A DNA stretch of 63,995 nucleotides, counting the filler, from Sluysia triapertura (lineage: Eukaryota), in assembly GCA_046118255.1 (NCBI GenBank). It is 5 parts of 5 records of this genome, joined end to end, with 100 filler letters (N's around TTAATTAATTAA, not from the genome) between each part and the next. Parts side by side here need not be neighbours in the genome. Positions count along the whole stretch, not along the records: positions 1 to 18,127 come from JBJNIA010175251.1; 4 more parts are not named here. The stretch is one strand, 5' to 3'. The notes below the pieces were generated by a model that saw only the letters and a list, made by a program, of their open reading frames with translations, searched no databases and was not told where the DNA came from. Made by a program: the position numbers and the translations under genes. Shown in pieces: positions 1-53,058 of this stretch (positions are counted from its first letter, which is position 1; every line of letters starts with the position of its first letter).

Positions 1-92
1 TTCTTTCTGTTTCAGAAATATTATGGTGAATGATTTACCTTAAGCGCTTTTGAGTACTTTCGCGGTAGATATGAGCAAAATATAAATTAATA

Positions 93-131
<39 letters not shown>

Positions 132-132
132 T

Positions 133-2285
133 GAAAGGAAATTAGGTACTTTAATTGAACAATTAGGAGGATGGAAAAAAGACAAAGATAAAGAAAAAGA
201 AGAAAAGAATATTTTAAATGAACCGTTTAACACAATACCCAGACTAATTAATAATAAAGGAAATACAAATGGATCATTCCAGAAATTTGGAACTTCAATA
301 AATAATATGCTATTTATAATTGTTTTATTAGCGTTATTTGGAATTAATAAAACTCATACTATAAAAGCTTTTGACTGTAGTCAACCTCAAACTGGAAAAA
401 CGTTCTCTTTATTAGATACCGAGGATTGTTCTGAATCAAGACCGAATCGGGTCAAAATAAAAGATATGAAAATATTAAATGTGTACCAGGAAGGAAATCT
501 AGTTACGACTTTAGTTAGAGAATGATTAGTTAAATGATCTGTGGTTATTTGATATTGTGGGCATCACAGTCATTCTTCAATTATTGATATATCAAATATA
601 TTAAAACATTTTAAAATATAACCAAACAATTGTCGTGATGCATTCGAAACTGGAAATATAAGTTTAAATAAAGGTGATAAATTAAGAACTAAGAATAATG
701 AGAAAATAATTTATAATATTAGAACAGCTGGTAATGTATTAATAGAGGGTACTTGCGAAAGAGGATCAATAGAATATGAAGGAAAAATTTATCATAATGT
801 TGTAGCTCAATAAACATATGTAGTAAGTTTAAAATCTTTTAAAGAAAGTTTTTATTTAGAAAAGAGTATATGATGTCTAGACCTTTTTGCAGGAGTGATC
901 AAACAAGTTGTGACACTGGCTAATCTATATTAATATATGAATTGGAAAAATATCAGTGCCCATTAATATTCTTAAAACAAATTAAGTTTAATCTAATTTC
1001 AGGACTTGTTTATCAAAATGAAGATGTAGAAGAAATAAATAAAAAGCAAATTTATAAGGATAATTTAGATATACCTGAAAGAAAAAGACTTCACGAAATT
1101 GAAACTCCAACAATTTTAATGGCAAATAAAGAAGAAGATGGATTAATATTTGTTTCAAAGAAATTAGTAATTAGATGTGGACAAGAAGTCACAGAAACTA
1201 ACTACCAAGGAATATATTTAGATGCGACAAGAGATCACAGAAAAAAACTATCAAGGCATATACTTCTAAGAAAAGACTATACTTCAAGCCAAAAAAGGAA
1301 CAGATACAAAGAATTTACAATTAAACACGTATTTTAATAATAAAATTGATTTTTATTATCATTTAGGACCTATGTCATTAGAAAAAGTTTATCAGGCTGC
1401 GATAGCGAGGGATTGCCAATTAAATAAAGAAATAGTAAGAACTAAATTAGCTGTAGCGATAACTAACCCAGACTTAGTAGCACCATTACTTCCATTAGAA
1501 GAAGGAGTATTTGATAGGCTAATGGGTGAAGGTCTATACACATACAAATGTAGAAAATTAGAAGTGCAAATACAAGAAATTGAATGTACTAATGAATTTA
1601 CGGCAATATACAAAAATCAAAATACTTATTTAGAACCAGTTACGAGAATCACTATGCCAAATAATAAACTTAAACGAAAAACCTTACACTGTTCAAATAT
1701 AATGACTCCGGAATATAAAATCGATGATAATCTTTGGATATCTTTACCACATCGAAGCAAAGTTAAAACACCGGAAATTATAAGTTTAACAGAATTAAAA
1801 AACAAAATTAAAATTTTCAGCTACAAAAAATATTCCAAGATCAGGAATCTTTTCGAATGAAGATATTTAGGCAGCTTGGCATGAAATCCTATTTCCAATT
1901 AAAAGATCTAAAGTACTTACTGATATATTTGACTGCAATGGTAGAAAAAGATGGCAAAATAAATTTTGAATTATTATTAGGACCTGACCATTTTAAGAAA
2001 GCAGCACACAATACTCGAAAACAAAGTTGGGGAAATTTTCTCGTCATTGGTCAAGCTTTTTCAGGTTTAATAGGAATATATGTAATAATTAAAGTTATTG
2101 CTCTTATAACCTCTCAATTATTTTCGGTAGTATGTATTTGTAAAATATCAGGTTTTACATGGAAGTTAATAATCAGTTGCTTTCCATTTTTAGCTAAGTT
2201 CCTGTTACATCATCACACAGATGCTCTATTAAACGCTTTAAAGAAAGAGAAAAACAAGCTGAAGAAATCGCATTACAAAAAATAG
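133..2285 (+). pseudogene. env: Degenerate envelope glycoprotein, chuvirus/herpes gB-like class III fusogen type, of an LTR retroelement
   Basis: Signal peptide MLFIIVLLALFG at 307, then AFDCSQPQTGKTFSLLDTEDC; reading through stops gives E*LVK*SVVI*YCGHHSHSS (YCGHHSH 553-573); Cys-rich ectodomain fragments at 942-1337 and 1372-1860 (GEGLYTYKC, YLEPVTRI); C-terminal TM WGNFLVIGQAFSGLIGIYVIIKVI in 1857-2285. The frame is open upstream to at least 133. Many stops and frameshifts. Confidence 0.8.
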
Positions 2286-2369
2286 ATATCGAACCAGTCA
2301 ACGAAGAAAAACAAATATTATATCCACAAAGAAACTTAGTTTAGATGATTTGTGCTAATAATAATTATA

Positions 2370-5300
2370 ATAGTACGCGAAGACCTATGGTAGACATGAG
2401 AGCTAATGGTAGAATGTTATCTGCATTAGTTGATACAAGAGCAGTTGCTTCATTAATAAGCGAATCATTATTAACCACTAAGGAATTAAATAATTTAGCT
2501 AAGCAGCATTCATAACTAACATGAGTAACAGGTGATGAAACTGATATACTAGGAGTAGTAAAAATATTATACGAAATCAGACAAAACAAAATTGAAATAA
2601 AATGCAGAGTAATGAGGAAATGTCCGGAAGACATGATATTAGGTATGATGTGCTATCACAATTAAAAGGAGTTTCATTAGATTTTAGTAAAGCAAGGTTA
2701 ATGGACACATACATAGAAAGACCAATTGATGACAATGATGCTATATTAGAAGAACCACGTTGGTTATTAAAAAGAACATAATGCATAATTCCAAGAAAAA
2801 CAAATAGTTTAAGAAATGGTCCAATAATGTTTGTAGCTTCAAAAAATATCCGAGAGAAATTATATATAGGAATTGCTGATTCAATATGTAGAATTAATGA
2901 TGGGAATATTCCAATAAAAATAATAAATTATACATACCAAACAAATGGCTATGTGCAGGTACTAAACTAGGAGAAATAGTTAACTATAAATTGCAAACAC
3001 AAATAAATATGGTGTCAGATGATAAATCAAGAAATAAAAACATAAGTCTACAAATAAACATTGAAGATGAAGAAGAAATACAAATAAAGAATAAGAATTT
3101 AACTAAACAACAAAAAGAAACGTTATATAAAGTTATCTAAAGATATCCATGGGCAATTGCACGAAACAAATAAGATATTGAAGATTCCGTTAATAGAAGA
3201 TAAAGTAATTAGGAAGAAACCCTACACAATTCCATTGTGCAACAAACAGGAGATGAAATATCAAATAGATACAATGAAAAAGGCTGGAGTAATTAGACAA
3301 AGATTTTCTCAATTTTCATCACCAGTATTATTAGTTAAGAAAAAAGATGGGACTATGAGATTTTGTATTGACTTCACAGAATTAAATAAAATTATAAGAA
3401 AAGATGTGTTTCCGTTACCAAGAATTGATGAAATGTTAGATAAATTGGGAAACGCTAAATATTTTACTACATTAGATCTTCAGAGTGGTTATTAGCAAAT
3501 AGAAGTAGCTGAAAAAGATAAACATAAAACAGCATTTTCATCTGGAGACGAACTTTATGAATGTGAAAAGATGCCATTTGGATTAACAGGTGCACCGGCG
3601 ACATTCCAAGGATCTATGAATTTTCGTACTGTCCGGTTGTAAGAATGTTATGGTTTACATTGATGATATAATAATATTTTCAAAAGATTTTGACACTAAT
3701 GTAGTAGATATTGATAACACACTATAAAAATTAGAAGTAGCAAGACTAAAGATTAAACCGACTAAATGCGTATAGGCAGAGACAAGTTGATTTTTAAGTT
3801 ACATAGTTTCGCACAAAGGTATAAAACCAAATCCAAGAAATATAGAAAAAGTTGTGAAATTTCCATCACCAGATAATGTGAAGAAAGTTCAAAGTTTTTA
3901 GGATTACCAAAATATTATAGAAAATTCGTAAAAGATTTTGCGAAAATAGCCAAACCTTTAAGAATGTTAACACAGAAGAATGTAACATTTAAGTGGACTG
4001 AGAAACAAACAAAAGCATTCATTGAATCAAAGAAAAGATTAACAACCGCACCAATATTAATGTTCCCAGATATGAGCAAACCATTTATACTAACAACAGA
4101 TGCTAGCAACTTTGCAATAAGAGCAATCCTGGAACAGAGAAATAAAGAAAATTTAGAAGATGTTATAGCTTATGTAAGTAGGAGATTAAATAAAGCGGAA
4201 TTAAAGTATTCTACAATAGAAAAAATAATGTTTAGCAATTGTATACGCTTGTAAAATATTTCGACATTATCTACTAGGACAGAAAGTATTATTACATACA
4301 GATCATAAGCCATTAACATATCTATACAACCACAGAGATTAAATAGATTAAATATATGGTTTACAAAGCTAGCAGAATTTGATTTACAAACCAGGGTCAA
4401 TGAACAATGGTGCTGATTGTATGTCAAGGTTAACAAATACATATGAACAAGGAAATGTGAATTTTATACAAATAATGTCAATTTCGGGAAAAGCTGAAGA
4501 ACCAAAAGAAATAATGAAACATCAAAGAGAAGATGAGGAAATGTCATGTGCATTCGAAGCAATAGAAAAACGAAGACCAAAGTTATCAATAACAGATGGC
4601 ATATTACGTTTTAGAGATTCAAAAGATGAATGGAAAACAATTGTACCGAAATCTTTAATAACACCACTGTTAATTCAATATCATGACGGACAATTAAGTG
4701 GGCATTTATCAACAAGGAAAACATTATCAAGAATTAAAAATAAATATTAGTGGGATAGCATGGAAGAGGTTATTAAGAAATGATGCAAGAACTGTATTAT
4801 ATGTTGTAGAAGAAAAAATACTGGAGTGAAAACAAAAGTACCATTAAGACCTATGCCAGTACCACTATCTCCAATGGGACCATTGCCAGAAACAATAAAT
4901 GGAAATAAGTACATATTAGTATTCGCAGATTATTTGACAAAATTGCCAGAAGCAAAAAGCGGAAACAGTAGCTCAAATTCTAGTATAAAAAATAATATAT
5001 AGATATGGAACTCCAAGAAAATTATTAACAGATCAAGGAACCAATTTTACTAGTGATGTGATAAAATCTGTTGCAAAAATATTGAATATTTTAAAAATAT
5101 ATACATCACCATATAATCCACAGACAGATGGATTAGTAGAAAGGTTTAATAGAACATTAATAAATATGTTAAAATTATATGTAAATGTGAGACAGAAAGA
5201 TTGGGAATTATATATATCACCATGTTTATTCGCATATTTAAGCTCACCGCATTATATCTTATGTACGGTAGACATTCAAACATGCCAGTAGATTTAGATC

Positions 5301-5673
5301 GGTTACCACCTTCATCACAATATATGGAAACTCCAGAAAATTTACAAGATGCTTGGAAACGCGCTGGTTTACAACGCGTTACACCCAAGAAACTTATAAA
5401 GATACTTATGATAAAAAGGAAAATGAACATAATTTCATGGTAGGAGACAAAGTATTAGTAGATTATCCAATAAAAATCAGGATATTCTCCAAAATTACAT
5501 AAACCATTTAAAGGACCTTATGAAGTAATGAAAACAACTTCTACTAATTTATACATAAAGAAACCTAATGATATGAATGCAGAAACGTTTGTGGTGCATG
5601 TAAACCGATGTAAATTAGTACCTAATGATAAATATATTTTAAGAGATAGAAAAGTGCTACAAAAAGTGTATTA
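2370..5673 (+). mobile_element. pol: Degenerate Ty3/Gypsy pol (protease-RT-RNase H-integrase)
   Basis: Protease ALVDTR (2432, mutated DTG); RT SPVLLVKKKDGTMRFCIDF, LDLQSGY, MPFGL, YIDD at 3656-3667; RNase H LTTDAS; integrase H-x6-H and C-x2-C, LTDQGTNF, PQTDGLVERFNRTL; GPY/F motif FKGPY near 5510. PR-RT-RH-IN order is Gypsy-type. Confidence 0.95.
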
Positions 5674-5799
5674 AAAGTTAAACCGAGAATTAAGGACAGA
5701 GACAAACCATCTAAATCACTAAGTATATCATCTAAACCATAAGCACAGATGTAACAAATAATAAAGTGATAAGCACAATAAATATGATAAGTACAATAT

Positions 5800-6202
5800 A
5801 CAAAATCATTTAGTTCAGAGTATTAAATTCAATCAAAGATAGGTACGAGCAGTCACAGATACAGGCTCGAATAATACTATTATCAATTATAATGTATTAA
5901 ATGCCTTAGAAGTTAATATGTTGCAACAAACGGGAATACGATTATTTGCAGTAGATAGCTCGCATATTCTATTTAATGGCATATTGCAATGTCAATTAAC
6001 AATATTAGATGTAGATTTATTTGTAACAATACTAGCTTGGGAAAGATGTCCATATGATGTTATATTAGGAATGGATGTATTAAACAAATTAGAAAATGTA
6101 GTAATACATGGAAGATTAGGATTTCTTAAAATACCTTTAGGTACACATGTAGTATTACCACAATTAGTTTTACCTCCAATGTCAAGAGCAGTGCAGCCAT
6201 GA
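5800..6202 (+). pseudogene. Second retropepsin-like aspartic protease downstream of integrase
   Basis: In frame with ORF 5918-6202: VRAVTDTGSNNTII (DTG 5858-5866) and YDVILGMDVL; in-frame TAG at 5840-5842. Confidence 0.8.
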
Positions 6203-6262
6203 CCACAAAATTATCAAATTATTTCATTAAATCCAATTATACCACCATCACCAACTCCAAAT

Positions 6263-7527
6263 TTGGAAAATCTTGATTGGTGGGACACCAGAGTTTCTTC
6301 GACTTCAGGTTTAGGAACATGTAATAATAATGACAATAGTACTAACAATAGTAGTAATAGTAATAGCAGCATAATGTTTATAAGAGGAATTCCAAATAAT
6401 AGATTTCATTATATAATAACTTTCATATTATTGTTATTTCATTTAACAACCATGATATCGCAATATCCAGCAAACTTAACAAGTTATACCGATACTAAAC
6501 AAGCAATTTTTCTAACAAAGATTTTGGACAGTTGAAATAGGCGAGAGAAATGAAATACCTAATTACAATTTAGAAATTTATTGCATACATTGGAAACCAT
6601 CATTAATAAAGAAACCTTTGTTAATAGATGATATTTATCAATGAGAACACTCAATCTATTTTACTGCAATAATAGGATTTTCGTTTTATGATAGTAAATT
6701 GATAACATTTAATTTTACAGATATACTTAATGAACAGTGTTATAAGGAAACTTAAATAGCACCTACAACAGTAACAAGCAATTTGGAAAGTTCAACAAAT
6801 AAAGAAATAAGTATGGAAATAAGTACGAATACAATAATGAAAAAGAACGAAGATAGTACAAAGAATTTCTTTATATTGGCACTTTTAATTTTTACCATAA
6901 TATACATACTATTTACTATTTATTATATTCTTACTTGTAACAGAATCTTAAGAACTAATAATATTCGACGAGACATAATGTTACTTATTATATTATCATT
7001 AGTATCAATTGCAAACGGATCACAAAGAGTATATAGATCAAAATATTTTGATTTCTACAACTATGATACAGAAGCCCAAATTAAAATGACCAGTACAAAT
7101 AAAAAAGCGCAATATATATGTATTAATCCAGCAACACTAAACTTTAGTTTATGGGAAATCCATCAGCTTGCAAAACCTCATACGGAATACTCCGTTACAA
7201 TTTGTAAGGGTTTTTTTGCTTTCCAAAGATAGGCACATGGTAATATTTATAAAAAGGCAAGCCAAAATCATTAAACAACCTCATTATGCAATACAAGGTA
7301 ACTGAAAAGAATTAACAATTATGAAATCATTACGAAAGGATCCATCATTGGCAACTCTAGTAATAGCAGCAACTTTATTTATTATTGATTTAATTATAAC
7401 CTTATTAATGATCATGTTCTTTATAATGAATAAATGCAGATATTTAAATTTTTCACCCAGTAACGACGACGATATTCATTATTCAGAACCAAGAATCATG
7501 TCAAAGTGTATTTTGTATATTTTGTAG
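6263..7527 (+). pseudogene. Fragmented accessory ORF(s) with several hydrophobic TM or signal segments, probably part of the retroelement
   Basis: ORFs 6263-6535, 6783-7232 and 7321-7527 each have hydrophobic runs; same strand and A-rich composition as pol. Confidence 0.45.
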
Positions 7528-7975
7528 TTTATAATTTATAATTTGTATGATATTTCCTTTTATGGTTATAAATAATTATTTTTATTTTAATAAATTTCAA
7601 ATAAAATAAATTGTAAGTTAAAATGAAATTTAAATTTTAAAAATATAAATTCTAAAATTTCAAATATTTCAAAGAATTACTTTATTAAAATTTTAAAATG
7701 CGAATTTTAATATTTTAGTATTTTCTATTTATTTACAATAAAATAAAATTTAAAAAATAAATTAAAAAATAAAATTTTGTTTAAATAAATTAAAATTAAA
7801 TTATTTCTTTATTTTTCTTTAAATGAATCAATTTAATAAATAGAAGACATCTTCCAATATGGAGTTAATCAATTTTATATAAGCTTTTAACATAAATTTT
7901 TAGACAATTTTTATAAAGTTCTTTCGGTGAAAATTTCAGATGATAAATATTCCATGCTTTCCAAGTAATTTTTTA

Positions 7976-8776
7976 TTGTTAGGGTTTGCCTATTGATCTT
8001 AATAAGGGAATAGTAAAATATACTAAAAATCATTTTTATTTTGATGCAAGACCTTAATAGGGGTTGCGAAACTTATTTTAAAATCTTCTAAAACTGCCAA
8101 ACGAGGTTGAATAGTTAACTAAGTTATTATCGTTATTATAGTTTTAATCTTTGTACGAAGTTTAATTAGTTTTTTTGTTGATAATATACTTAATCGATAA
8201 TGTTCTTAATTGATAATGTTCTTAATCAATAGTGCGATAAACTTATAAAATCATTTTTGTTAAGCAACACCTTAATACGGGTTGCTTAATTATAAAATCT
8301 GTAATTTTAATTAAACAACACCTCACAATTGGTTGAAGAGTTACAAACGATTAATCAGCCGTAAGTCATAAGTAAGAAACTATTCTAAAGTTGATTAAGT
8401 TAAGTTATAGAAAACCCTAATAGTACGTCTCCAATAGTAGTATAAATCGTATATATTAGACGAACCGACTCCTTGGATATTCCATAAGTAAAATTCAGTT
8501 TTTAAGAGAAACACTTGTAATCAGTTCATCAGTGGATAACGGTGAAACGAAGTTATTTCTTTAAAAATCAGCTAAAGTAAAATAGTTTAGTATAAAGTAG
8601 GAATAAAGGTTAGTAACATGATCGTATTTTGTATTAATACGGGCGTCAAAATTTATCTTAGATAAGTTGTGTCACCCATGCTTGCGATTCATCATTAAAG
8701 AATAATTTATATTATTATAAAGAATAATATGTACTGTTGATGTTAGAAAGAATATTTTAGTTGTAATCTTGTGACA
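7976..8776. repeat. Repeat region, possibly the 3' LTR/UTR, with ~220-bp diverged direct repeats and a segment shared with 18865-18990
   Basis: gcaagaccttaataggggttgc (8046) vs gcaacaccttaatacgggttgc (8264); 26-nt identity between 8523-8548 and 18896-18921. No clear PPT or TSD found. Confidence 0.4.
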
Positions 8777-9259
8777 ATATAAAGAATATATCAAGATTTT
8801 GAATTTATTTAGATATTTAGTTTTAATTGATAATTTTTAAAATAAAAAGCACAAAAGACACATCAAAACATAAAGTAAAATTAATTAAGAAATATAAATT
8901 ATAAATTAGACTTCATTAACAAAATCCTAAACAATGAAGATTAATAAATTAATTAGACAAAAATTGCTTTTGTCAAATTTACTATTTTTAGTATTATTGT
9001 AAAATGCATCTGTTATTGTTATGACTGTTGGAGCATAGCTTTACCACCGATTATCTTTAGTTATAGTATTTTTTTGAAATTCAATGTCTAAATTTTAATA
9101 AGATCAGATTTTAGTCGACGTGTAAAAATTCAGGGAATCTTGTAAATTATTATATGAAATCAAATGAAATTGCATATTATTAATGTAAAATTTAAAGAAT
9201 GATTTTAATTTGTCTGATGCTTAAGTTAAGGTATATATAAATTAATAGTTAGTAATTCT

Positions 9260-11131
9260 TCAACCTGGACCAGCACAGCATTGTTCACTTGTTTCCTCTC
9301 TTTAATGTTTCTTATGAATATTTAAATTTTTATCATGTGACCATTCCGAGTATTTTTTGTAAGTTTCAACAGAAAATGCTCTCCACTTCAAATATTTTTA
9401 TCAAATCTAATGGAAACATGATTAAAAAGTAAACAAATGAAATAAATTTAAATAATTTTTTAACCCACATAGGTTTCTGTAAATGCAATAATAATAAATA
9501 ATATCTTTGGAAACTTTATTATTTTGTGTTGTAATATTAGCTTAAAGATTTTAAAAATTTGAAATGTTAACTTGTAGATTTTTGTATCTTTAACAAGATA
9601 TGTTCCTAATGATTCAGTATCGTAGAGACAAAATCGAGTTGTTTTTGATAAGGAGTTTATGTTAGACTTCAGATTTTTAGGTTCGGATCTAGTAAGTAAA
9701 TCAATTATGATAATAGTAAAATTCTGTACAAGGATCTGACGGATGACGAAGTGAGATGTTAGGTTATGAGTCGTGTTTACTGTTACGTATGTACATTTAC
9801 ATATAGGTATAGTTTGATCTTTTAAGTTATCAAAAGACATTGACTTACGTTACGAACTGGTTTTTGTCGTAATAATACGAAATTCTTTTTTAAGAAATAA
9901 TAGATTTAATTTTAGCGTTTTAATTTCTAAAATAAATATAAAAATTCTAAGTACAATACATTTATTATATGAAATGGGAATTTTAAATTTTGACAAAGTT
10001 TTCTCTTATTAAATCTTTGTCCAACACTACGACCAGTTGCTCTCCATTGATCCATTCTTTAATTTGATTGACTAAAATATAAATCAAAAAGGTTATAGAA
10101 CAAAACTTACATACAACATCTTACCTCAAAAAGTATTGTTCATTAATTTGCATAAATTCACTGTGCTCATCAATTTAGTGTTAATGATGTTGTCAACTGT
10201 TGACGTTGTAGTGTTGTGTTGAACTCATTAATTCGTAGTAGAATAAACTTGTAATGATAGATCTTAAAACCATTCGTAGCATTAATTTTTGATATTGAAC
10301 TAAAGCGATGTACTGCTGTGTCTAGGAACAATTCGATTAAATTTTTTCGCATTATAGTGCTGGCCTTTGGTCGGCTTGACAGATGATAACCAATTAGTTC
10401 ATGTTTATACTCCTTTGATATATTGTGTAGGTTACTCATGGTCCGTATACTTCTGGCTAAATCTTTATTGTCATAATTATCCAATTCGTCTTCGAGTACT
10501 CTCTCAATAACTAACTGCTCATTCAGGATTTGGGATATTTGATAAACTTTTCGTTGAACTAGTTCAATGATTAAAATTTTTTGCCGTGGTTTGATTATTA
10601 ATAGAAAATTTTTTGAAAATAGCATCGTATACGTGTCAGTAAGGCAAGCTGATTTTGTCAGATTTACACTATTAACTAAGTCGATTAAACCTTTTGAACT
10701 TGGTTTATTGGATCCACTATTCCCATTATTATTCATTTCTGGTGCTGCATTATAACTTGTAATTTTAACTTCATCATAAACATTTGTTCTAATTGTTTCG
10801 TAGAAGGGATTATCTTCATTCTTTAGAGTACTACAAGAATCACATTGATTATGTTCGAAGACATTAGAAAGGGTAATTAATGGATGGTAGCTTTATTGTC
10901 ATTAAGAAAAGATAATACACCATAAACATTTGAAATTTGCTTTGTTTTTTGCTTTCGATCTAAATAGAATTCATTAAACTCGTTAAAATCTTTCATAAAT
11001 TTATTTGCCAACAAATTACTACTTGGTTTTAGAATATCATTATCAAGAGTAGTACATTTTACTAAAGTTTGGACATAAGATGATTCCATAGAATTTTTAA
11101 TAACTGGTCGATTCGGAGAAGTTTTTGCCAT
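9260..11131 (-). pseudogene. Disrupted spliced host-like gene, tentatively RhoGEF (DH-PH)-like
   Basis: ORF pieces 10877-11131 and 10170-10736; RQKILIIELVQRKVYQ and KIYHYKFILLRI resemble DH start and end helices; GTAAG donors near 10123 and 9848; exon SIKLKEWINGEQLVVVLDKDLIRENFVKI resembles a PH-domain start. Frameshifted. Confidence 0.35.
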
Positions 11132-11299
11132 GATTTAATGTGAATGAATATTCGGCGTCAAAAATTACACATGAAAAACAATTCTATTTGACTGTAAAAT
11201 GGTCTTTTTTATTAGCAAAACAAATAAATTGTCACACTTTGTATAATATTGTTTAAGAAAGAAAGTATTCACTGTAATTTTTATTAACTAATATAAAAT

Positions 11300-11557
11300 T
11301 GTCCATTTTACCCAATCAGAGTCTCGGAAAGAATATTTAATAGTATGAACTCTGATTGGGTAGTGTGTACAAACTATAGACATAAATTGAAGTTTGACAT
11401 AGACATAAATTGATGATTGACCATCATCAGTGTTGGCACTTTAATGAAAAATGTAACGTATAGTGTCAACACTTGTGATGGTAGCAACCAGGTTGATCGT
11501 CATTTAAATGAGTTTAAAGTAAATTATATTTTGTGAAAATAAAATAATTTAACGTTT

Positions 11558-11608
<51 letters not shown>

Positions 11609-12450
11609 CTTTCTTGACAATCCTTAAAAACATTATCTTTTCTTTCTATGTCTTAATTTCTTACATATTAAAATAAGATAACAAATAAAACTATTGGAAT
11701 TATGTGAAGGAGCAACGGTAACGTGTTATATGGTGTTTAGGTTATCGTTGCTGCCTTCACCAAAGAAATGAATTCTTTAATGCTCTATTAAATTTATTTT
11801 TTGAAAATGAAAGAATGATTTGAGCTGCAAGTAAAATAAAGAATGCTAGAATAAACTCTTGAGATTCATTCAAGGTTTATAATTGAAAATATGGTTTATG
11901 CACTGAATGTAATGGTTTAAAATGCTTGTTAATAGGTTATAGTTTATTTGATTTAAAAGACAATTACAAAATAAATCTTAGCGTATTTACAATGTTATTG
12001 AAGAATGTTAATAATGATTATGTGTAGAGGCAATGGGTTTAAATTAGTTTGACTGATTCGTGATTGTAGTGTAAATGTTTTCTATGTTTCGGGTACTTGT
12101 TTGTAATTTAAATATTATGTGTTATGATTGTAATTTGGTTTAAGAGAATGACTATTGAGTGAACGTTATGGATTGCTTTTCGTGTTAATTATCGAAGTAG
12201 AGTGTGAGATGAATGATTGAGAGTATTCGACGAGTTGTTTTTAAGAAGTGTATATTGTTGAATTAATATGAATGTCGAATGTTGTTTTTGATGCATCGGT
12301 TAATGTATTGGATAGTATGAAATGTGATTGATTTAGAAGTTATGTTGTTTTGTAAACTGATTGTTGTGGTTTGAATATGTTAAGTCTGATTAATATTTAA
12401 AATTGTAGGATTTTTAGAAAATTTAGAATTGTGGGTGTTGGCCACTACAA
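11300..12450 (-). repeat. Dispersed non-coding repeat, copy 1 (homologous, inverted, to 19150-20145)
   Basis: Reverse-complement matches: gttggccactacaa/ttgtggtggccaac, tttgagctgc/gcagctcaaa, and 11405-11490 vs 19945-20030; strong GT/CA strand skew. Confidence 0.7.
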
Positions 12451-12459
12451 GATGACTAA

Positions 12460-13560
12460 TGGACTAACGTTTATTAACGTATTATTAACATACTATTGAT
12501 TATTTATGACTAACAAATTATTCATTGTAATATTTGTTCACATTATTTAATTGAATTATCGATTTATTAATACTATTTTTAATTATTATTCATTTTATAT
12601 TTCTTTGTATTTTTGAATATTCGAATTTTTATGTGATTTATTTAATTTTGGAATATTTGAATGCGATTCAAAGTAAGAAATTATATAATTATATTAATCG
12701 CTAATTAAATTAATATATTAATAGTTAAACTACGTAATTATAGAATTAAATAAATTTATAAAATAAATTTTAATATTTTGTTTTAATCTGACCAATGTCA
12801 GATTAAAGCAAATATATAGATCTAAAATTTTGCAAAATAACTTACAATTTTTGCTGACACAATTTTTGATAGCACACAATTTCAACTTATAAAGTTCTTC
12901 AATACAACTTGTTATTACAAGTCTTCTTTTAATACTGGAATTCGTGGTTTACGATTCGAAATCATTCTACTGTCATGCTTCAAAATAAATTTTATTTAAC
13001 GTTACGTTAGTTTAATTGTGATAAGTCAAGTTATTAACAATATCAACGTAAATTCATTTGATATGTATTTTAACTTCTGTTCAGTTAAAATACGCAAATT
13101 AATTGTTATTAATATTACTATTATATACATTATATTATTGTTTCATAATAAATTATTAAAATCGAGTTTCATTATTCAATTTACATATTCGTAAAAATAA
13201 AATCCATAGACGAAAACACGTTTTCAACAATTGGAATTTTAATCCAATTTCGTAAAATCATTTTTGAGATTCCATTTCAAGGAATCCACTTAAAATAATC
13301 CTAATAACATTATTATTATTATTAATTTTGATTATTTAAATAAAATTTTATAAAATTTATTAGTATTAAAATTTACCTCCAAAAAATTTTTAATATTTCA
13401 CTGTCAAGATATAAACTAGCATCATTAACAAAACTTTTTGAGTATTTCTATAGCCTTAGTTAATAATCCTTTTATTCACAAATCCAACGGCTGGTCCTAA
13501 CTGGTAAGCCCACTGCGTTGGTGGACTCACGTTAAAACTTTTGATTTATTCTATCTTTAC
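12460..13560 (+). repeat. Dispersed repeat related to ~34600-35390
   Basis: ctggtcctaactggtaagcccactgcgttggtggactcac (13491) vs ctagccctaccggtaagactagatgtattggtgaactcac (35312), plus similar attattaaca..tattgattattt starts. Confidence 0.5.
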
Positions 13561-16500
13561 TTTACTTTTCCCACAGAACTTAATTCTGCTAGATTCAAAT
13601 AATTAAATTACAAAAATATTTTGTCTTTATTTAAAATAGGACTTGAAAAATATATTTTGAGTTTCTTTAAAATAATCCTTGAAAAACAATAATGTGACAT
13701 ATTTTATAACTTCTAAAACTATCTATTTTTATTTTTTGAAATAGCTCATTAGTTTTAGCCTATATAAAATTGCTTTTTAAAGAGGCGCTGAGGATTAAAA
13801 GAAACCAATAAATAATATGAAGACTACTATTTGATAAACAAAATGATTTGTAATTGTTAAGGAATTAATAATCAGATATACAATAGAGAAATGATAACCG
13901 AGTTGCTAAATTAAATCTCAAAAGTTTTTAATTGATATTTATTTTGTTTTGATTAGATTTTATCGACTTATTTAAAAGGGTCATTTAAAAATTTAAAAAG
14001 ATTTTAAGTCGGATTTTAATATGCTTTAAGGATATTAAAACTTAAAAATAAAAATCTAACGTATATCTTTTATGAAATTAATGCGGACTTCGTTTCCGAT
14101 TCAAATTTACTTGGGATAACCAGATGGTATATAAAAATTCTGAAATACGAATTAAGTTTTGCCAAAAATAAAATATAAAATTTTCAAAGTGAAATGTAGA
14201 ATTTTCACAAAAATTTGTATCACCAAAAATGAAATGTGGCACAAAGTTTTTTGCAAAATAAAATTATGAAAATTATTTAACTAATAATGTAAATAACAAA
14301 ACAAGAATATGGTGTTTATTTTTTTGTTTTACTTAACAAAAGAAGGGAGCACCATTTATAGTACATTTTGATTTGACATTTAAGGTCTTTATATTAATGC
14401 ATAATCTGCGTACTGGTTTAAAGGTTTTTTACTTTAGCTTACTGAATACTTTTTCACTTACTACGAATGAAAAATTATTATTATCATTGTTGTTTCTATT
14501 ATTCTTTTTATTGCATTATTCTTTTTAAAATTCATATTTTTTGTACAAAGACAGATAAATTCAGATCTTTTAAATTTTTCAGTAAAACATTTTTGAAATA
14601 AATCTCTCATGCTAAATACAAGAATAAATTATGTAGACAAAATCTAAAGCAAATAAATTTTTCTTTGGTTTAAAAATCTAAAAATAAATGTTAAAGACAA
14701 ATTAGGATTCTAATGTATCAAATTGGGCTGTAGTTACGTGACAAAAAATTTTAATGTGTCAATATAATAATGTAATATTCGTATAAATAAAAGAATTTAT
14801 AATATAGAAATTAAGTAAGGTGGATGCAAATTTCAAATAAAATTACATTACAGAATGGAAGAAAAAGTGAAAAAAATATATATTGTGTAAGATTTGTCAA
14901 ATGGTGAGATTAACTATGGAAAGAAATTGATCTTGAGAAAACTCAAATAGGAATTTTTTTGGTTCTAACAAAGTACTCGTTAAAAACTATACAAGGAGAA
15001 ACATCTTAGAGAAAAGCACAAAGAAAATACAAGTTGAGACAAAAAAGAATCAAACGAAAAGGAACTAGGAAATATTTCACTTTAAATTTACCAGATATAT
15101 CCAAACAATTAATTTTAATATTAGAACCGTTAGAATATGTAACGTATTGTTGAATCAGTGTTACGCTGTGTTACTCGTTTTAACTTCTAATAATTATTCA
15201 TCATTCTAATATTCGATTATCGACTAAGACTGTATTGAAAATAATTATTCAGTACACATAATTTCCGAGGATTCGTTATTACAGAGTACAATAACAAATT
15301 GGTAATTTTGAAAGGTTTAACTAATATAAAATTTTATTTTGCAAATTTAGTTTTATAAAATTATTAAAAAATTATTTTGTTAAACTATTTTAAATTTTAA
15401 TTTGTTAAATTTTTAGTGAACCTCAATTTGTAAATTTATTAAAACGGATTTTATAACATGTGCTTTTTATCATAATCATCAATTTGTATTATCATAAATA
15501 TATTGTTTTTAAAATTCAAGCTTAATAATTATTCTTTGCAAGAACTTAAGTTAAACTTTTTCAATTATATATTATTACGTATCGACAATAGTTTAAAATC
15601 TCTTGATGCTTATCTATTCTTAACAACCCTTTATTTTCTTGATTTATAAATGATTTTTATGTTGTATTTTATATGAAAGCGTGAGCTCGGATACTCGTAT
15701 ATATATAACCTGGAATAGAAATGCACAAGTCTAAAGTCTAATTAAAGTCTACTGTATTTAGTAAAAGTACTCTAAATTAATTCTATGTGCTATAAATTCA
15801 CTCTTATTTTCAATTGTGACGTGTTCTTTAATTTATTTTCTTTTGGGGGCACTGATTCCAATAAAAAACAAGGATCATATTCGAAAATTTATTATTCAAA
15901 TACTGCATACAGAATTAGTAATGATAAAATTAACAATAGTAAACAAAAGCAATTTTATTAAATAAACGAACACAGAAATTTTAGTAATTGTTACAATGAT
16001 TATGAAGTTAATAAAAAATATATTTATCGTAACTTTAATTAGTATAATTTTAAACTGATAGTGTAATAAATATCACTTACTTAACCTCAGTAAGTCTTTG
16101 TTATACTTAATGATAGTTTGTATCTCCCAAACGAATTCGAAAAAAATTCTCCAACAATTCCTCCTTTTTCGTATATTAATTGTGATTCCCAAATATTTCT
16201 CCTCGTACAAAAAATCGTATATCCCAAGTAGAATTTCTAAGAATATTTCTGCTTTTAGTACAAAATCGTATGACCCAAATAAAATTTTTAACAATATTTT
16301 TCCTCGTACAAAAAAATCGTGTGTGATTTTATTGCACTCTAATATTAATTATTTATTTACATTTTAAGTATGTAGTTATGAAAAATAATTTTTACATTGA
16401 TAATAATAGTGCATAAATAATGCATAACTTAACTTGTTAAAATGGTACATAATAATAAATACTTAATAATATGTTATGTGCATTTAATTTCATAATAATA

Positions 16501-16669
16501 ACGAGTGATATATAAATTAATTTGTTAATAGGTAATAATGATAGTTAATAAGTAATAAATGTACACTATGATTTTTCTCGATTATAATGCTTTTAATTTT
16601 GAAATAATTTTGATATTACATTATTCTTTATGTTCTACCAATTCTTTAATTTAAGTTGATTTTAAATTG

Positions 16670-16917
16670 TAAAATGGTTGAAATTTTAAAATGGCGATTT
16701 TCATTAAACTGATGCAAGTTTATATACTAGTCATCAGCAAACGAAAATCGATGGAATGTTCTAAAACATTCTAGAAGCTTCTATTTTATTTATAGAAGCT
16801 TTATTTATAGAAATTTATTTTCTTTTTTGGAAAATTAATATTTTTTAGGTGTTTTTAGACATTTATAAATAATTTTAAAGCATGTTGTGTGATTTTAAAG
16901 GGTTATAATAACAACCT
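16670..16917 (-). promoter_or_regulatory. Repeated promoter-like cassette, copy A (HSE array, TATA, YY1-like motif)
   Basis: GAAtgTTCtaAAAcaTTCtaGAAgcTTC at 16754-16781; TATATAAA on the minus strand; AAAATGGCG; closely similar to 22920-23175. Confidence 0.6.
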
Positions 16918-17463
16918 AACACTCATCTGAGCAAAACCACATCACATTCGTAATACAAAATATTTGTTCTGTACATTATGTAACTAAATTTTATCAAAAA
17001 AATAACGTACATAAAACATATTGGGAAACGTAAAAAATTTATCTTTAAAAGTATTTTAAAATAATAGTAAAATGCATTTCAAACTAAAGTTTAATAAAGT
17101 ATTATTTTTCAAATAATATCTAAAATTGTATTTTCAGCTAATTGTAAACTAATTATTGTGTTACTTTTTTCTATTTATTTCATTAAATAATAATAAATTT
17201 TAAATTATTTTCTTATTTAATATAGTGATTATGAATTTTTTTCAAGTTATTATTAAATATGGAATATACAAATTTCAAATTTAAGTTTAGATTAGCATTA
17301 CTAAATGTGAAAAAAATAATTTTTCTACTCTCACAATCCATACATTTGAAGAAGGTAAATGAACAAATCAAAATGTACAATTTTTTTCAATGGAAAATAT
17401 AAAAGTTGATTACTCAAGAAAGCAAAAGTTTGTTTTTTTATTGTGTTGCTTGAAAAGATTAAA

Positions 17464-17734
17464 ATGAGTCATTCTAAAATTAGTTCTTCATCATCACCTA
17501 AACAAAGTAATATTTCATCTGCTTATAATGATGCTAATTCGATTAATGACGATTTGGACTATAAAATAGAACAAGTATTAAATCAAAGCTTTAAAGAAAA
17601 AATTATTCAATTATGTAAAAATATATCAATTTTATTGCTCATGACATCGATAACGTTAGGCTTGATGGGTTATGTATTTTCTAGTAAATTGGAAACTGAT
17701 CGTAAAGCAACGTTATTGAAATCACTAATTCAGT
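17464..17734 (+). CDS. Possible exon of a small single-pass membrane protein
   Basis: ATG at 17464, Ser-rich N-terminus, TM ISILLLMTSITLGLMGYVF, GTTAGT donor at 17735; no family recognised. Confidence 0.35.
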
Positions 17735-18073
17735 GTTAGTTTTTTATATTTAATGTTTGATATAGATTTATACAATTTTTAATTGACATTTTTAGGTCTT
17801 ACCACAACATGTTTCCAGATTCAATTGTGTTGCATTCAAATATTTAATTAATTGACTTTATCTATAGAGTGTTTAGATATGTAGATTCACCAATGTTAGA
17901 ATTCATAAAATGGACTGATTAGAATTCTGCCTCGGGCCTTTTATACATTATACAATTTTATATATTACAAATTATATATTTTAAAATGGTACGTTTAGGT
18001 CTAGACTTCAACATTAATTTTCTAATTTGATAATTTGCAGGTTACAATACGGCAATGAAAGTAATATTACGTT

Positions 18074-18074
<1 letters not shown>

Positions 18075-18127
<53 letters not shown>
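18075..18127. repeat. (ACT)n microsatellite at contig end
   Basis: Direct observation. Confidence 0.95.
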
Positions 18128-18227
18128 NNNNNNNNNNNNNNNNNNNNNNNNNNNNNNNNNNNNNNNNNNNNTTAATTAATTAANNNNNNNNNNNNNNNNN
18201 NNNNNNNNNNNNNNNNNNNNNNNNNNN
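18128..18227. other. Artificial contig join (N run + TTAATTAATTAA linker)
   Basis: 100 nt with a six-frame stop linker; same structure at all four gaps. Confidence 0.97.
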
Positions 18228-21407: not shown

Positions 21408-21750
21408 TATTGCAGGTGTTTCCAACATTTCAGGCGGCAATAATTTAATAGACAACAACGTTAAGGTAAATAATATTTACTTTTATTTATGTCGTGTTAA
21501 CAATCATTATCATTATTATTATTACTTTTATTTATTAACTAGGTAGAACGTCGAGAAGAAGTAGCAGTCAAATATAAAAATTAAAATTTTTCAAAAATAA
21601 ATCTTTACGTTTTTATTTTCAATTTCTGTATAGGGAAGATATTACAACTAGTTTAGAACTAAAAAAATTTTAGAATTTTAGTAAAAGCTAATCTTAAATT
21701 TTATAAAGTTAAAAAATAGTTTAAATTTAAAATTTAAAAATAACTATCAA

Positions 21751-22802
21751 TCAATCATAAACACCATCAACTTTCCACAACAGGCGGAGATGGGCATGCT
21801 GGAGTTCGCCGTTCGAAGTACTTAGCCACTTTTTCAATTTGGTTGGTAGAATCCAGAAATCTTGTCGTATATGTAGGCTGATCTGATGTGGTAATTGATT
21901 GCCGTAGTGCCGTCCTGATCGCGTTGGATACTGCGGACTCGTTAAAGCGGAAGAACAAGAATAAAAATATTTTTTAGCAGTAGACTTAGATGAGTAAAGG
22001 AAAAGTGCCGGTGGGAGTTTATTACAATTTGGTATGAACATCAGATCTTTATCCCTGATCAGATCAAGAAGTTCAACCAACACAGACGCAAGTTCCCTAA
22101 ACGTAAATTTAGGAAGGACAAGATACAACAGTTTAAGTGTCTGTCTCGCCCTAAGAAAGTCATCTTCTATTGTGAATGAGATGAGGTTGTGATTAGTAAG
22201 ATTAATCACTCCTCTCAACCATCCAAAAGGCAACTGGAGGGATTCGATAACAAATCGGGGATTTAAGGGCACCAATATCTTGTCCTGAAGGTGACCGTAG
22301 AATAACTGATAATGTTAAAACAATAATCATAAAATATAAATGCTATTATCTCCGAGTTAATCATAATATAACCACAATAACAAACATTACTGTCTTCCTC
22401 GTTTCCCAAAATAATTATAGATTCGAAGTCTATCATTACTTTCTTCTTCGAACAAGCAATCAATATCTCTTAATAATGTTTCCTTCTCTTATTCTTCTTC
22501 TTCGTCATTTGTTATACCGTTGTCTTTCATCCATCTACTTACAATTGTTGCAACGTATTTTCTTTTTTCTTCAAGTTGTTGAGCATTTTTAATTATCTTT
22601 TTGTCTTTCTTCCTTTAGTTGTGCTTCCTTTTTCCTTTTGGCTTCTTTTTCCCTTTTGGCTTCCTTTTCCTTTGGGTTCTGTTTCCTTTTCCCTTACTAG
22701 TTGCATGAAACATTCATGTAAGTAATTGATAAATATATCATCTCCATCGTCATGTTTACTTTTAGGTTGTTTTCTTTCCTCCTTATGTTCAGTACTATCC
22801 AT
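21751..22802 (-). pseudogene. Orphan ORF cluster, paralogue 1 (basic/acidic ORF 22593-22802 and ORF 21751-22275)
   Basis: GC higher than flanks; LVPLNPRFVIESLQLPFGWLRGVINLTNHNLISF..DDFLRARQTLKLLY matches the 23394-23850 copy. Confidence 0.5.
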
Positions 22803-22854
22803 CTTTGCCTACGGAATTTCTGATTGAATCACTAAATTGCTTTGCAAATTGAAG

Positions 22855-23175
22855 CTAAAATGGCGACTAAAAAATTTAACTGCTAAAATCAAAATGGCTG
22901 TACTAAATAGCTAACTAATTAAATGGCGATTTTCATTAAACTGATGCTAGTTTATATAGTAGTCATCAACCAATGAAAATCGATGGAATGTTCAGAACAT
23001 TCTAGAAGCTTCTATTCTATTTATAGAAGCAAATTTTCCTTTTTAGAATTTCTATTTTATTTTTTGGAAAATAATTTCTTTTTGGATGTTTGGAAACTCT
23101 AAAATATTTTTTAAATGATTTAAAAGAAATTTTAATAATATTTTTCATAATTTTAAGGGGTTGTGATGGCAACCT
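22855..23175 (-). promoter_or_regulatory. Repeated promoter-like cassette, copy B
   Basis: Perfect four-unit HSE GAAcaTTCtaGAAgcTTC at 22995-23012; CCAAT 22970-22974; TATATAAA (-) 22951-22958; three AAATGGC motifs at 22857-22928; ATG at 22802 downstream. Confidence 0.65.
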
Positions 23176-23304
23176 TATATCTCTTCTCCGTTTATAAGAA
23201 TTTGTCCATAAATTTCAAAACTAAAGATATAAAGAATTAATAAACACAATATAATAAATGTAACGTTAAAAAAATGAAAATTATTATTTTAATCACAATT
23301 ATTA

Positions 23305-24400
23305 TCAATGTAAATGCCAGTTAAATATCTCCGAGTCTTCTTCGCAATGGTATAATGTATCATCTGGTGCGAACCAGTCAGTATCGGAATCGTCTAGATC
23401 GACGCCTGGCGAGTGACATCTCGAGAGTGTTGATTTGGCTGGATGGTCACAGATGATCTGAGTAGACGTAAAAGGAGACAGGCCGGAATGATCATGGAGG
23501 AGTTGTTCGGGACTGGTCGAATCGAATTGGTGGAGAAGTTGTGATAGGATAGGAGAAGGAGGATTTGTATAAGAAGGAGAAGAACAGATAGGAGAAGGGA
23601 AAGAAGAAATCGGAAGAGGAGGAGGTAGATTTTGCGGCAAAAAGGTCGAATGGAATTAGAGATGAAGTCGAAACATGTCATTTTAGGCAAGAATGGGTAT
23701 ATAAGTTTCAACACCAACTTAGCCCTTAGAAATTGGTCGACTGTGGAGAACGAAACTAAATGCATGTTGGTGAGGCTTACTATTCCTCTCAACCAACACA
23801 AGGGATACCTAGAGTTTTAATAACGATGTCTGGATATAAAGATACCAAGAACTTGTCGTGTAAGGAGGCTAGCCAGTAGCTCCTTATATCATCTACGTCT
23901 TTTGCTGACGACAGATTTTCATCATTGAGTCCATGAATCTCCTTATAAAAGTTTTGAGCTCTAACCCGAGGACGAATGATATCTATCGAGTGAAATTTTT
24001 TATGGTATGGCATAAATCCTAGTTGGATAATTCGATGGTCACGATTCACATCCAAAACATGATGAAAAGCTACGAAAATAAGCTTATGCAGGAAGATGTG
24101 GAGTATGTGTAAACATTCATGCCACTCGTCAAGATGTTGAACGTCAGTGGCATAGAGAGGGTTTAAACAAGATTTGGTGACCCTAGGATGAATAGGAAAT
24201 AGTATAACAAAAGTGGTGGGGGTGTTCATCAGCTTCGATTTTGATAACTTGAGATTTGGTGAAATTCTCCACCCGTAATGAAGAATATCCGTAGATTCTA
24301 AAAAGGAATGGGGAAAATGCTAATGTCATCGTGACTTTAAGGACGCCAAAATAATGAAACTTTTATCGTCAGGGAATCCAAAAAGAGCATTAACGATAAT
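23305..24400 (-). pseudogene. Orphan ORF, paralogue 2, frameshifted, with Pro/Ser-rich acidic tail
   Basis: 23789-24229 ends LVSLYPDIVIKTLGIP and continues after a frameshift as CWLRGIVSLTNMHLVSF..DQFLRAKLVLKLIY; tail in 23305-23640. Confidence 0.55.
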
Positions 24401-25039
24401 CGAAGAAAGGGTTTCCGATAGAAAAATAAATGTGTTATAAAATTTGTATTTAGTTCAGATTTAAGAGGGTTAGGTGTTGTTTTTGGGTTAAGAAAAGAAA
24501 TGGCAGGGTTCTTCTTCCTGCAAAACCTCTTAAAAGTTATAGCAAAGTCGGCATGTACGAGAAACCCAAACCACCGAAGGCAGCAAATCGAATCCAATCG
24601 GAAACAAAAATTTTGCAAAGTCAACGAATCGAGTCTTCAAAACAATATATTTCAAACAACATAAAAGTGTATGTACATAGTACAGATACATATGGAGTTT
24701 AAAAACTCTACAGATAAGAATAAATAATAAAGTCTTTCGATCACATTATGTCAATTTGTTATTACTCAAATATTCGATGATTCTGTTTCCTCGATTGATG
24801 CCACATTGTTTTCTTCTGCACGATTTTCTTCGTTTATTTCTGCTTCATCGGATTCTTCTTTGTCAATCTCTACATTGTTGATATCTACATGCATATCTGG
24901 TTCGTTGATATGTATCTGCTCCGTTAGTTTCAACTTCACTATCACCATTGTCGAAGAATATACCATTATTGTGCATATTATAGATTCTGCAACTTCACGC
25001 AATAGATTTAATTATACATTCCTTCTTTATCTTTTAGAT

Positions 25040-29271: not shown

Positions 29272-29371
29272 NNNNNNNNNNNNNNNNNNNNNNNNNNNNN
29301 NNNNNNNNNNNNNNNTTAATTAATTAANNNNNNNNNNNNNNNNNNNNNNNNNNNNNNNNNNNNNNNNNNNN
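29272..29371. other. Artificial contig join
   Basis: N run + TTAATTAATTAA. Confidence 0.97.
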
Positions 29372-36800: not shown

Positions 36801-37477
36801 AGTAATTTCTATTTCAGAAATATTAAGTCGATTGTCATATTCTTAGCGTTTTTGATACTTATTTTATAACAGATATTAGCGATATAAATTAATAATAATA
36901 ATAATAATAATTATATTATTATTATTATATTCATTTTTTGAATAATATTTTGAATAATTACGTAAAAAATTCTGTTTTTATATTTACAAACCTTTTTGAA
37001 TTTCAATTTTTAATTTTGTATCAGATTTAAGATCATTGTTTTAAAGTAATAATAATAATAATAATAAGAACAATAATAATAATAATATTTTTAAATTTTA
37101 AATAAAACTTTCTAAGCAAGGATTTCATTATCAATATTTTATTTATTAAAATAATTATACAAGTTGTTTTAATTTTTCTTTTGATTAAAAATATTTTTTG
37201 TTTTAATTCCTTATTATTATGTTTCCTTACAATCTTTTATTTGTATTCTCATGAGACTTATCCATTATTCAATATTTTTACATTCATTTAAGGTATTAAG
37301 CGACAGAAATGGTAAAATGTACCAGACACAAATACGTTTAGGATGATTTAAATCTTTTAATTAATTTTTGAAAGCAGAATAAATTTAGATCTATTTAATG
37401 TTGCAGTACAACCATTTTTTGGCAATAGTTTTATTTAAATTTAATTTACACTAATGGTTATTTCAAATATTTTGGAG

Positions 37478-40714: not shown

Positions 40715-40814
40715 NNNNNNNNNNNNNNNNNNNNNNNNNNNNNNNNNNNNNNNNNNNNTTAATTAATTAANNNNNNNNNNNNNNNNNNNNNNNNNNNNNN
40801 NNNNNNNNNNNNNN
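40715..40814. other. Artificial contig join
   Basis: N run + TTAATTAATTAA. Confidence 0.97.
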
Positions 40815-52958: not shown

Positions 52959-53058
52959 NNNNNNNNNNNNNNNNNNNNNNNNNNNNNNNNNNNNNNNNNN
53001 NNTTAATTAATTAANNNNNNNNNNNNNNNNNNNNNNNNNNNNNNNNNNNNNNNNNNNN
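52959..53058. other. Artificial contig join
   Basis: N run + TTAATTAATTAA. Confidence 0.97.

Follow-up and report, generated by a model that had tools for sequence, protein, structure and literature searches.

A decayed Ty3/gypsy retroelement copy with a glycoprotein B-type envelope gene ahead of pol, and a putative Bcl-2-like domain before the envelope in some of its relatives

Envelope genes (env) of the glycoprotein B (gB) type are widespread in Ty3/gypsy elements, and a GAG-ENV-POL order has been described from Nematoda, Bryozoa and Platyhelminthes (Chary and Hayashi 2026, PMC13524379). Nine flatworm families with 1 to 215 copies each are listed there (six Schmidtea families), and an ancient acquisition of env with rearrangement of open reading frames (ORFs) is argued for. 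The GAG-ENV-POL elements are not monophyletic in that work, which leaves open how gB-type errantiviruses are released and enter cells. Non-canonical nematode endogenous retroviruses (ERVs) with env before pol are also on record (Sacco et al. 2022, PMID 35550022, as cited in PMC13524379). The locus considered here lies in a 63,995-nt stretch of the Sluysia triapertura assembly GCA_046118255.1, called the window below, in which five contigs of about 11-18 kb are joined; the element sits at the start of the first (1-18127). It is very probably a dead, 5'-truncated copy of a Ty3/gypsy long terminal repeat (LTR) retroelement of GAG-ENV-POL type, with an HSV/gB-type env (HSV, herpes simplex virus), in the AT-rich genome of a probably spiralian animal.

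The 'ancient errantiviruses' (Smed_errantivirus_1-6, Mlig and Pcro; PMC13524379) share with the window element a Ty3/gypsy pol, a gB-type env with signal peptide and transmembrane (TM) segment, and the position of env before pol. The likeness is one of description rather than of direct sequence comparison, and the window copy differs in being broken and truncated. The nematode ERVs of Sacco et al. are likewise Metavirus elements with a captured RNA-virus-like glycoprotein and a flipped env/pol order; the host of the window element, by contrast, looks spiralian. Anakin comprises mosquito BEL/Pao elements with a chuvirus glycoprotein (PMC7642597, Dezordi et al. 2020); its env is of the same broad family, PF24664, as that of the window, whereas its pol is of BEL/Pao and not of gypsy type. 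Cer1 was dropped as a model, since its extra ORF after pol is not an env (PMC10309623). An earlier note on this sequence had taken gB-like envelopes to be mostly a BEL/Pao feature and the element to be a possibly undescribed lineage. Neither view is supported: gB-type env occurs widely in Ty3/gypsy elements, and the layout has been published for three phyla. Because a gB-type env before pol is already in print, the window copy adds little alone.

The window was translated frame by frame with stops written as X, and the pieces were scanned against Pfam. The element and its 5' boundary are made up as follows.

130-180, plus strand: putative leftover of a Bcl-2-like domain, namely its C-terminal (BH2-like) end, read in the env frame (17-residue block score)
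about 289-366, plus strand: internal hydrophobic signal peptide of env (hydropathy; aligns with the equivalent segment of P0007, P0005 and P0008)
367-2215, plus strand: decayed env of HSV/gB type (chuvirus-like, class III) in five frame segments (PF24664; collinear tblastn; fold of a relative)
2040-2150, plus strand: TM segment of env (hydropathy)
2198-2341, plus strand: cytoplasmic tail of env and its junction with the protease; a motif of YPx(n)L type lies at 2321 (motif recurs in relatives)
2369-2650, plus strand: first retropepsin, degenerate and stop-interrupted, starting at about 2370-2390 (PF13975, E = 3e-6, at cut-off; PF00077, E = 3e-4)
3184-3900, plus strand: reverse transcriptase (RT), broken, with the catalytic YxDD motif at about 3656 (PF00078, E = 2.4e-16)
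3994-4390, plus strand: RNase H (PF17919, E = 3.6e-26; PF17917, E = 1.6e-16)
4643-5620, plus strand: integrase with H2C2 finger, catalytic core and C-terminal p58/SH3-like part (PF17921, E = 4.5e-17; PF00665, E = 5e-5; PF22938, E = 4.6e-5)
5822-6130, plus strand: second domain like a retropepsin, following integrase (PF13975, E = 1.3e-4, short of the cut-off)
6203-7440, plus strand: post-pol remains with hydrophobic segments at 6315-6371, 6855-6941 and 7342-7437 (hydropathy)
1-131, no strand: host repeat of dispersed type that closes with a (TTA)n microsatellite and lies outside the element (repeat family D14; blastn, 71-96% identity on three other contigs)

Three single-frame pieces of env matched PF24664 (Monjiviricetes_fusion, 653 positions) in order and above the cut-off, at profile positions 3-189 (E = 5.8e-25), 295-463 (E = 2e-23) and 514-623 (E = 2.6e-13). 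A fourth piece, 870-1337, has no Pfam match, yet it aligns with relatives at 32-37% identity. The whole env is collinear by tblastn with the relatives P0005-P0010 at 26-51% identity, and its frame switches near 860, 1235, 1810, 1930 and 2215-2285. Protease, RT, RNase H and integrase follow in the Ty3/gypsy order, with the finger, core and C-terminal module expected of a Ty3/gypsy integrase, and env lies upstream of pol within the 2 kb used in PMC13524379. No gag or LTR was found between the env and the protease of the window copy. The claim of the earlier note that a gB-like env stands directly upstream of a gypsy pol, with neither gag nor LTR in between, is thereby borne out.

The end of env, which that note had put near 2285, is better described in two parts. 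Homology to relatives stops near 2215, and the open frame-2 stretch 2198-2341 carries on into the protease. A Tyr-Pro motif lies in it 37 codons ahead of the protease aspartate, and Tyr-Pro recurs 29-91 residues ahead of that aspartate in all nine env-protease polyproteins examined. Since the stretch is open and the Tyr-Pro recurrent, the gap is read as env tail running into the protease, with no intergenic spacer. Motifs of the YPx(n)L type are late-domain motifs that bind ALIX. They are present in six of the nine polyprotein relatives (shuffle frequency 0.01-0.15 each) and in 15 of 38 stand-alone glycoproteins, against 2.4 expected. At the other end, the frame ahead of the signal peptide is open as had been stated, for about 55 codons only (133-300), with the host repeat beyond. 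Because this repeat cuts the element at about position 130, gag, the primer-binding site (PBS) and the 5' LTR are missing; the upstream inspection that had been suggested turned up neither gag nor 5' LTR, and the repeat explains their loss.

Relatives place env before pol repeatedly. A search with the mid-env piece returned three proteins, each of which (42-48% identity) carries env and then a protease on a single chain. The N-terminal env piece, searched among 1.84 billion representatives, gave 142 matches. RT was present in five of these, and env was N-terminal to RT in all five, a count that is blind to elements with env in a separate downstream ORF. The N-terminus of P0007 is Gag-like and carries a zinc knuckle, and Gag or zinc-knuckle features also precede env in P0009, P0015, P0017, P0035 and P0070. 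Over about 5.3 kb, env to integrase, the window is matched collinearly by P0009 (2627 aa) and P0010 (2855 aa); in P0010 the match goes on through the second protease. From the start of env to the protease aspartate there are 688 codons in the window, compared with 684-753 in eight of nine relatives and 915 in the ninth. As predicted from sequence, the relatives would encode gag-env-pol as one polyprotein, and these single chains agree with the (gag)-env-pol polyprotein that the earlier note had proposed.

The mid-env tree, built from the window and the 30 best of 49 matches, grouped the window with P0005, P0006, P0008, P0009, P0010, P0015 and P0026 (support 0.97), and the wider clade of env-before-pol elements stood apart from the stand-alone glycoproteins (support 1.0). 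The clade of the window takes in every env-before-protease protein of that tree. The window RT is 60% identical to that of P0009 and 58% to that of P0010, and the integrase core 57-69% to those of the same two proteins. Env and RT order the four full-length relatives alike, P0009 and P0010 being closer than P0058 and P0035; the RT phylogeny suggested by the earlier note is consistent with env to this extent, with no more than four relatives and without named references. Among the distant matches, P0089 and P0027 have env fused behind regions that by eye resemble BEL-type gag, with a protease-like motif in P0089, and represent a different env-in-polyprotein arrangement.

A structural model was made on the intact relative P0008, which is 26-46% identical to the window pieces (71 sequences; predicted local distance difference test, pLDDT, 82). 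Foldseek gave herpesvirus gB in every match listed (best E = 2.6e-13; 113 matches at E <= 0.001). VIA-align placed five gB entries on top (Z = 9.8, root-mean-square deviation 8.5, 415 residues), followed at Z = 5.5-5.8 by thogotovirus and vesiculovirus glycoproteins among unrelated coiled coils. The model supports the assignment of env as a class III, gB-like fusogen and agrees with the earlier note, which had named Foldseek as a check on this point. With its signal peptide and TM segment, env has the features by which PMC13524379 recognizes gB-type envelopes, the fold being shown for P0008. The ectodomain fold is shared with herpesvirus gB and other class III fusogens at 9-13% identity; the difference is that here env is embedded in a retroelement polyprotein, and no gH/gL partners were seen. 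An env of PF24664 ahead of pol also sets the element apart from the insect F-type errantiviruses (Drosophila gypsy, ZAM), in which an env like baculovirus/paramyxovirus F follows pol.

Downstream of env, the integrase matches PF00665 and PF22938 fall below the cut-off because the scanned pieces were short. The second retropepsin-like domain is 25% identical to the first protease (E = 4e-8). P0010 also has a protease after integrase, collinear with window 5822-6130, and two to four protease copies follow env in P0005, P0006, P0010, P0015 and P0070. The remains at 6203-7440 are possibly a decayed accessory membrane protein and a candidate part of the element. Two Pfam matches, to hepadnavirus surface antigen at 6203-6532 (E = 1.5e-4, below cut-off) and to Orf78 (E = 0.007), were weak and were dismissed as noise from low-complexity or hydrophobic sequence. 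Long extensions past integrase, in which signal- or TM-like segments occur, are present in P0009 (2190-2627), P0010 (2400-2855) and P0058 (2255-3243) and suggest that the same chain includes a second accessory protein, either secreted or of the membrane. Compared with window 6200-7800, these extensions showed no significant similarity past the protease.

Pol carries further stops and frame switches, and with those of env they make the window copy dead. It therefore lacks the uninterrupted ORFs by which PMC13524379 includes intact elements, which has no bearing on its lineage. A search of the window for LTRs or for another copy of the element turned up nothing beyond microsatellites, short repeats of the host and runs of spacer. 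Several purine tracts lie at 5635-8800, none assignable as the polypurine tract.

A helical domain common to seven relatives (P0005, P0008, P0017, P0029, P0065, P0066 and P0071) ends 56-86 residues before mature env, just ahead of the signal peptide. The seven were chosen by motif and alignment among the 25 matches in which the start of env could be recognised and 60 or more residues preceded it. Pfam PF00452 was matched singly by six of the seven over the BH1-BH2 region (best E = 7.7e-5), with scores, among those listed, of 16-20 bits against a curated cut-off of 31.4. A five-sequence profile that included the window N-terminal piece was compared with the PDB, and the best 60 of 94 matches were all Bcl-xL or Bcl-2 (best E = 0.01). 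For the model of P0065 (mean pLDDT 51, confident only at residues about 74-146), all 39 Foldseek matches listed were of the Bcl-2 family (best E = 0.026, probability 0.99). VIA-align gave no Z >= 8 for this model. Bcl-2 chains made up 9 of the 50 rows listed (Z = 6.1-6.7; 68-80 residues at 2.4-3.1 Å), tied with unrelated bundles, the best hit (Z = 7.6) being unrelated; their identity, 13-22%, was above that of most others. With the Bcl-2-like region of P0065, the ESM Atlas returned nothing at >= 0.9 and no Bcl-2 family cluster, and a word-based search found only P0065 itself among 22 candidates. The sequence and fold tests share sequence signal and are not fully independent.

In the window, the 17 codons at 130-180 rank first of 33,956 stop-free 17-mers against the seven-relative block, at 23.9 compared with 19.3 for the next; the relatives themselves score 31-50 when left out one at a time. 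The block was chosen after the motif was seen. The remnant lies 72 residues before mature env, compared with 56-86 in the relatives. With the whole-domain hidden Markov model of the seven relatives, run against 3,479 six-frame window segments, the remnant was not among the 15 best (top E = 0.38, elsewhere). The BH2-like motif was absent from 12 other long relatives (best 14.7, most under 8). Since these include P0009 and P0010, the domain is patchy in its distribution. Compared with the Bcl-2 family, including the viral A179L, KsBcl-2 and BHRF1, the helices in the seven relatives match alpha4-alpha8 and carry a BH2-like motif. They differ in that only the C-terminal half is confidently modelled, BH1 is degenerate and the domain sits inside a polyprotein; the window copy retains only 17 residues. 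The region between Gag and Env also holds a ubiquitin-like segment in P0017, ahead of the Bcl-2-like domain (PF00240, E = 0.031), and, by eye, in P0014, P0015 and P0029; the gag-env spacer seems to collect accessory domains.

How far the locus could be explained otherwise was weighed for its order, its affiliation and its lineage. If one element's 3' env, or an endogenous viral element (EVE) derived from a chuvirus glycoprotein, had come by chance to lie beside another element's pol, one would expect a copy such as this one, decayed and repeat-truncated, with no gag or LTR of its own and with a frame break and a stop between the env TM segment and the protease. Nevertheless, chance fusion is very unlikely, and already largely refuted, because intact collinear relatives share the order and the spacing in one chain, env comes first in every RT-bearing homologue and the env and RT similarities are concordant; nor does an LTR or gag lie between env and pol. 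An Anakin-type BEL/Pao element with a chuvirus glycoprotein can claim the env family, linked to mosquito Pao elements in PMC7642597, and the distant match P0093, in which DUF5641 precedes env. It has next to no probability here. The order is env-protease-RT-RNase H-integrase instead of a BEL/Pao pol with env downstream, and the pol pieces match gypsy-type models, with no DUF5641 or Pao peptidase among the pieces scanned. In Anakin itself env reportedly follows pol, which is consistent with P0093. The proposal of an undescribed lineage that captured its env independently draws on the distance of the closest relatives, with env identities of just 33-53% and RT identities that do not exceed 60%; because the GAG-ENV-POL elements of PMC13524379 are not monophyletic, the branch could be one that was not sampled there. 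It appears improbable all the same, as elements of this order and env type are on record from three phyla and the window env falls in one well-supported clade with the env-before-protease proteins of the mid-env tree. The GAG-ENV-POL assignment has its own weak points. The window copy has no gag, PBS or LTR, and no LTR-like direct repeat involves the element. The gB fold is that of P0008 only, resolution is poor in the tree of N-terminal env, and the RT tree is as small as stated above. The close full-length relatives P0009 and P0010 are without the Bcl-2-like motif. Moreover, the relatives are predicted proteins and some look like gene-model fusions (P0011, P0022 and P0113), so that 'one ORF' rests on protein predictions and not on DNA.

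The signature of BH1 in the Bcl-2 family is NWGR. It is not conserved in the alignments of the relatives, where only a basic residue stands at the Arg position in some. This would suit a generic helical bundle, for instance a part of Gag resembling matrix, in which a GGW-type motif arose by chance, as would the scores short of the curated cut-off, the tie with unrelated bundles in VIA-align, the lack of a Bcl-2 cluster in the ESM Atlas and the low overall confidence of the P0065 model. A bundle of that kind is a rather unlikely account. It leaves unexplained the individual PF00452 matches in six of seven proteins, the Bcl-xL or Bcl-2 identity of all PDB profile matches listed, the Bcl-2-family identity of all Foldseek matches listed and the higher identity of the Bcl-2 rows in VIA-align. 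The support for Bcl-2 descent is consistent but sub-threshold, and the pre-env domain probably is of such descent. That it has Bcl-2-like activity is doubtful on the present sequences and models. Equally tentative is the fuller proposal that a gB-enveloped gypsy branch captured a host Bcl-2 gene and retained it, between Gag and Env of one polyprotein, as a functional module anchored in the membrane, with its last helix kept in the window. Such a retroelement-borne viral Bcl-2 might keep the producing or infected cell, such as a stem or germ cell, alive.

Nothing in print was found on three features, which may be new: the single gag-env-pol polyprotein, the second protease after integrase and the Bcl-2-like domain before the signal peptide. 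The YPx(n)L-type motif of the env tail may be new as well. In its accessible part, the main text of PMC13524379 does not use the words 'Bcl', 'polyprotein' or 'single ORF' and does not speak of extra proteases, and 'Bcl' is absent from one of its supplementary files and from PMC12801592. A literature search for a Bcl-2 domain in LTR elements, with thin coverage of subscription journals, found nothing relevant. A planarian Burro element with a host-derived anti-apoptotic protein is reportedly the subject of a preprint; the literature search did not find it, and it would lower the novelty if right.

The contigs of the window are joined by N44-TTAATTAATTAA-N44 spacers at 18128-18227, 29272-29371, 40715-40814 and 52959-53058. 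Because they are five separate contigs, sequences on either side of a spacer are not linked. The GC content of the window is about 13-35%. Copies of a short dispersed repeat occur at 1-131, 36806-36928, 42054-42102, 63171-63348 and 63718-63824, some ending in a (TTA)n tract, and possibly represent the end of a short interspersed nuclear element or of a miniature inverted-repeat transposable element. Its recurrence across contigs indicates that they belong to one genome. A 73-nt repeat, 93% identical, lies on two different contigs at 16689-16761 and 22921-22993.

On another contig than the element, an intact single-exon rhodopsin-family G-protein-coupled receptor is encoded at 32622-33911, minus strand (PF00001, E = 2.8e-21). 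Its best relative is 48% identical, and all 15 named matches (of 57) are molluscan, at <= 37% identity; the ESM Atlas clusters are mostly nematode and uninformative. The molluscan matches point to a spiralian host that evolves fast or has few named relatives on record; a flatworm is a conjecture. Exons of a eukaryotic glutathione synthase lie at 42683-43012 and 49465-49938, plus strand (PF03917, E = 2e-21; PF03199, E = 1e-7). The higher-GC region at about 21750-26435, minus strand, with fragmentary ORFs, resembles by eye a decayed non-LTR retrotransposon with a zinc finger and an endonuclease-like end, for which the Pfam scan gave no convincing match. Open frames at 10173-10892 (240 codons) and 46516-47100 (195 codons), both on the minus strand, had no match in the Pfam scan.

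The order of the domains, the gB fold seen in a relative and the predicted single chains of relatives, in which env is joined to pol, are shown here; for the ancestor of the GAG-ENV-POL copy, a mechanism is proposed as a working model. Its product would have been one long polyprotein that crosses the membrane of the endoplasmic reticulum (ER) twice. Gag and the accessory domains would remain cytosolic, the internal signal peptide would direct translocation of the gB-like ectodomain to the lumen, and through the TM segment the chain would come back to the cytosol. There the YPxL-type motif of the env tail might recruit ESCRT (endosomal sorting complexes required for transport)/ALIX for budding. 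Protease, RT, RNase H, integrase and second protease, following the tail, would be held on the cytosolic side until the proteases of the element cut; signal peptidase and the element's own protease or proteases would free the parts. The result would be enveloped particles that could travel from one cell to another, germline or stem cells being examples of a target. In a subset of the lineage, probably including the window copy, a Bcl-2-derived helical domain would stand just before the signal peptide. Cellular Bcl-2 is anchored in the membrane by its tail; after cleavage by signal peptidase, the hydrophobic signal sequence could anchor the Bcl-2-like domain in the same way.

With gag, env and pol in a single chain, that chain has to be threaded through the ER membrane and cleaved by proteases of host and element alike, whereas retroviral env is spliced instead. 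The anatomy of this polyprotein thus bears on the release and cell entry of gB-type errantiviruses left open in PMC13524379. If the Bcl-2-like domain is real and active, it would provide a means, open to test, by which a transposon could protect the cell that hosts it from dying. Viral mimicry of Bcl-2 is known from large DNA viruses, and under the same condition it would extend to LTR retroelements.

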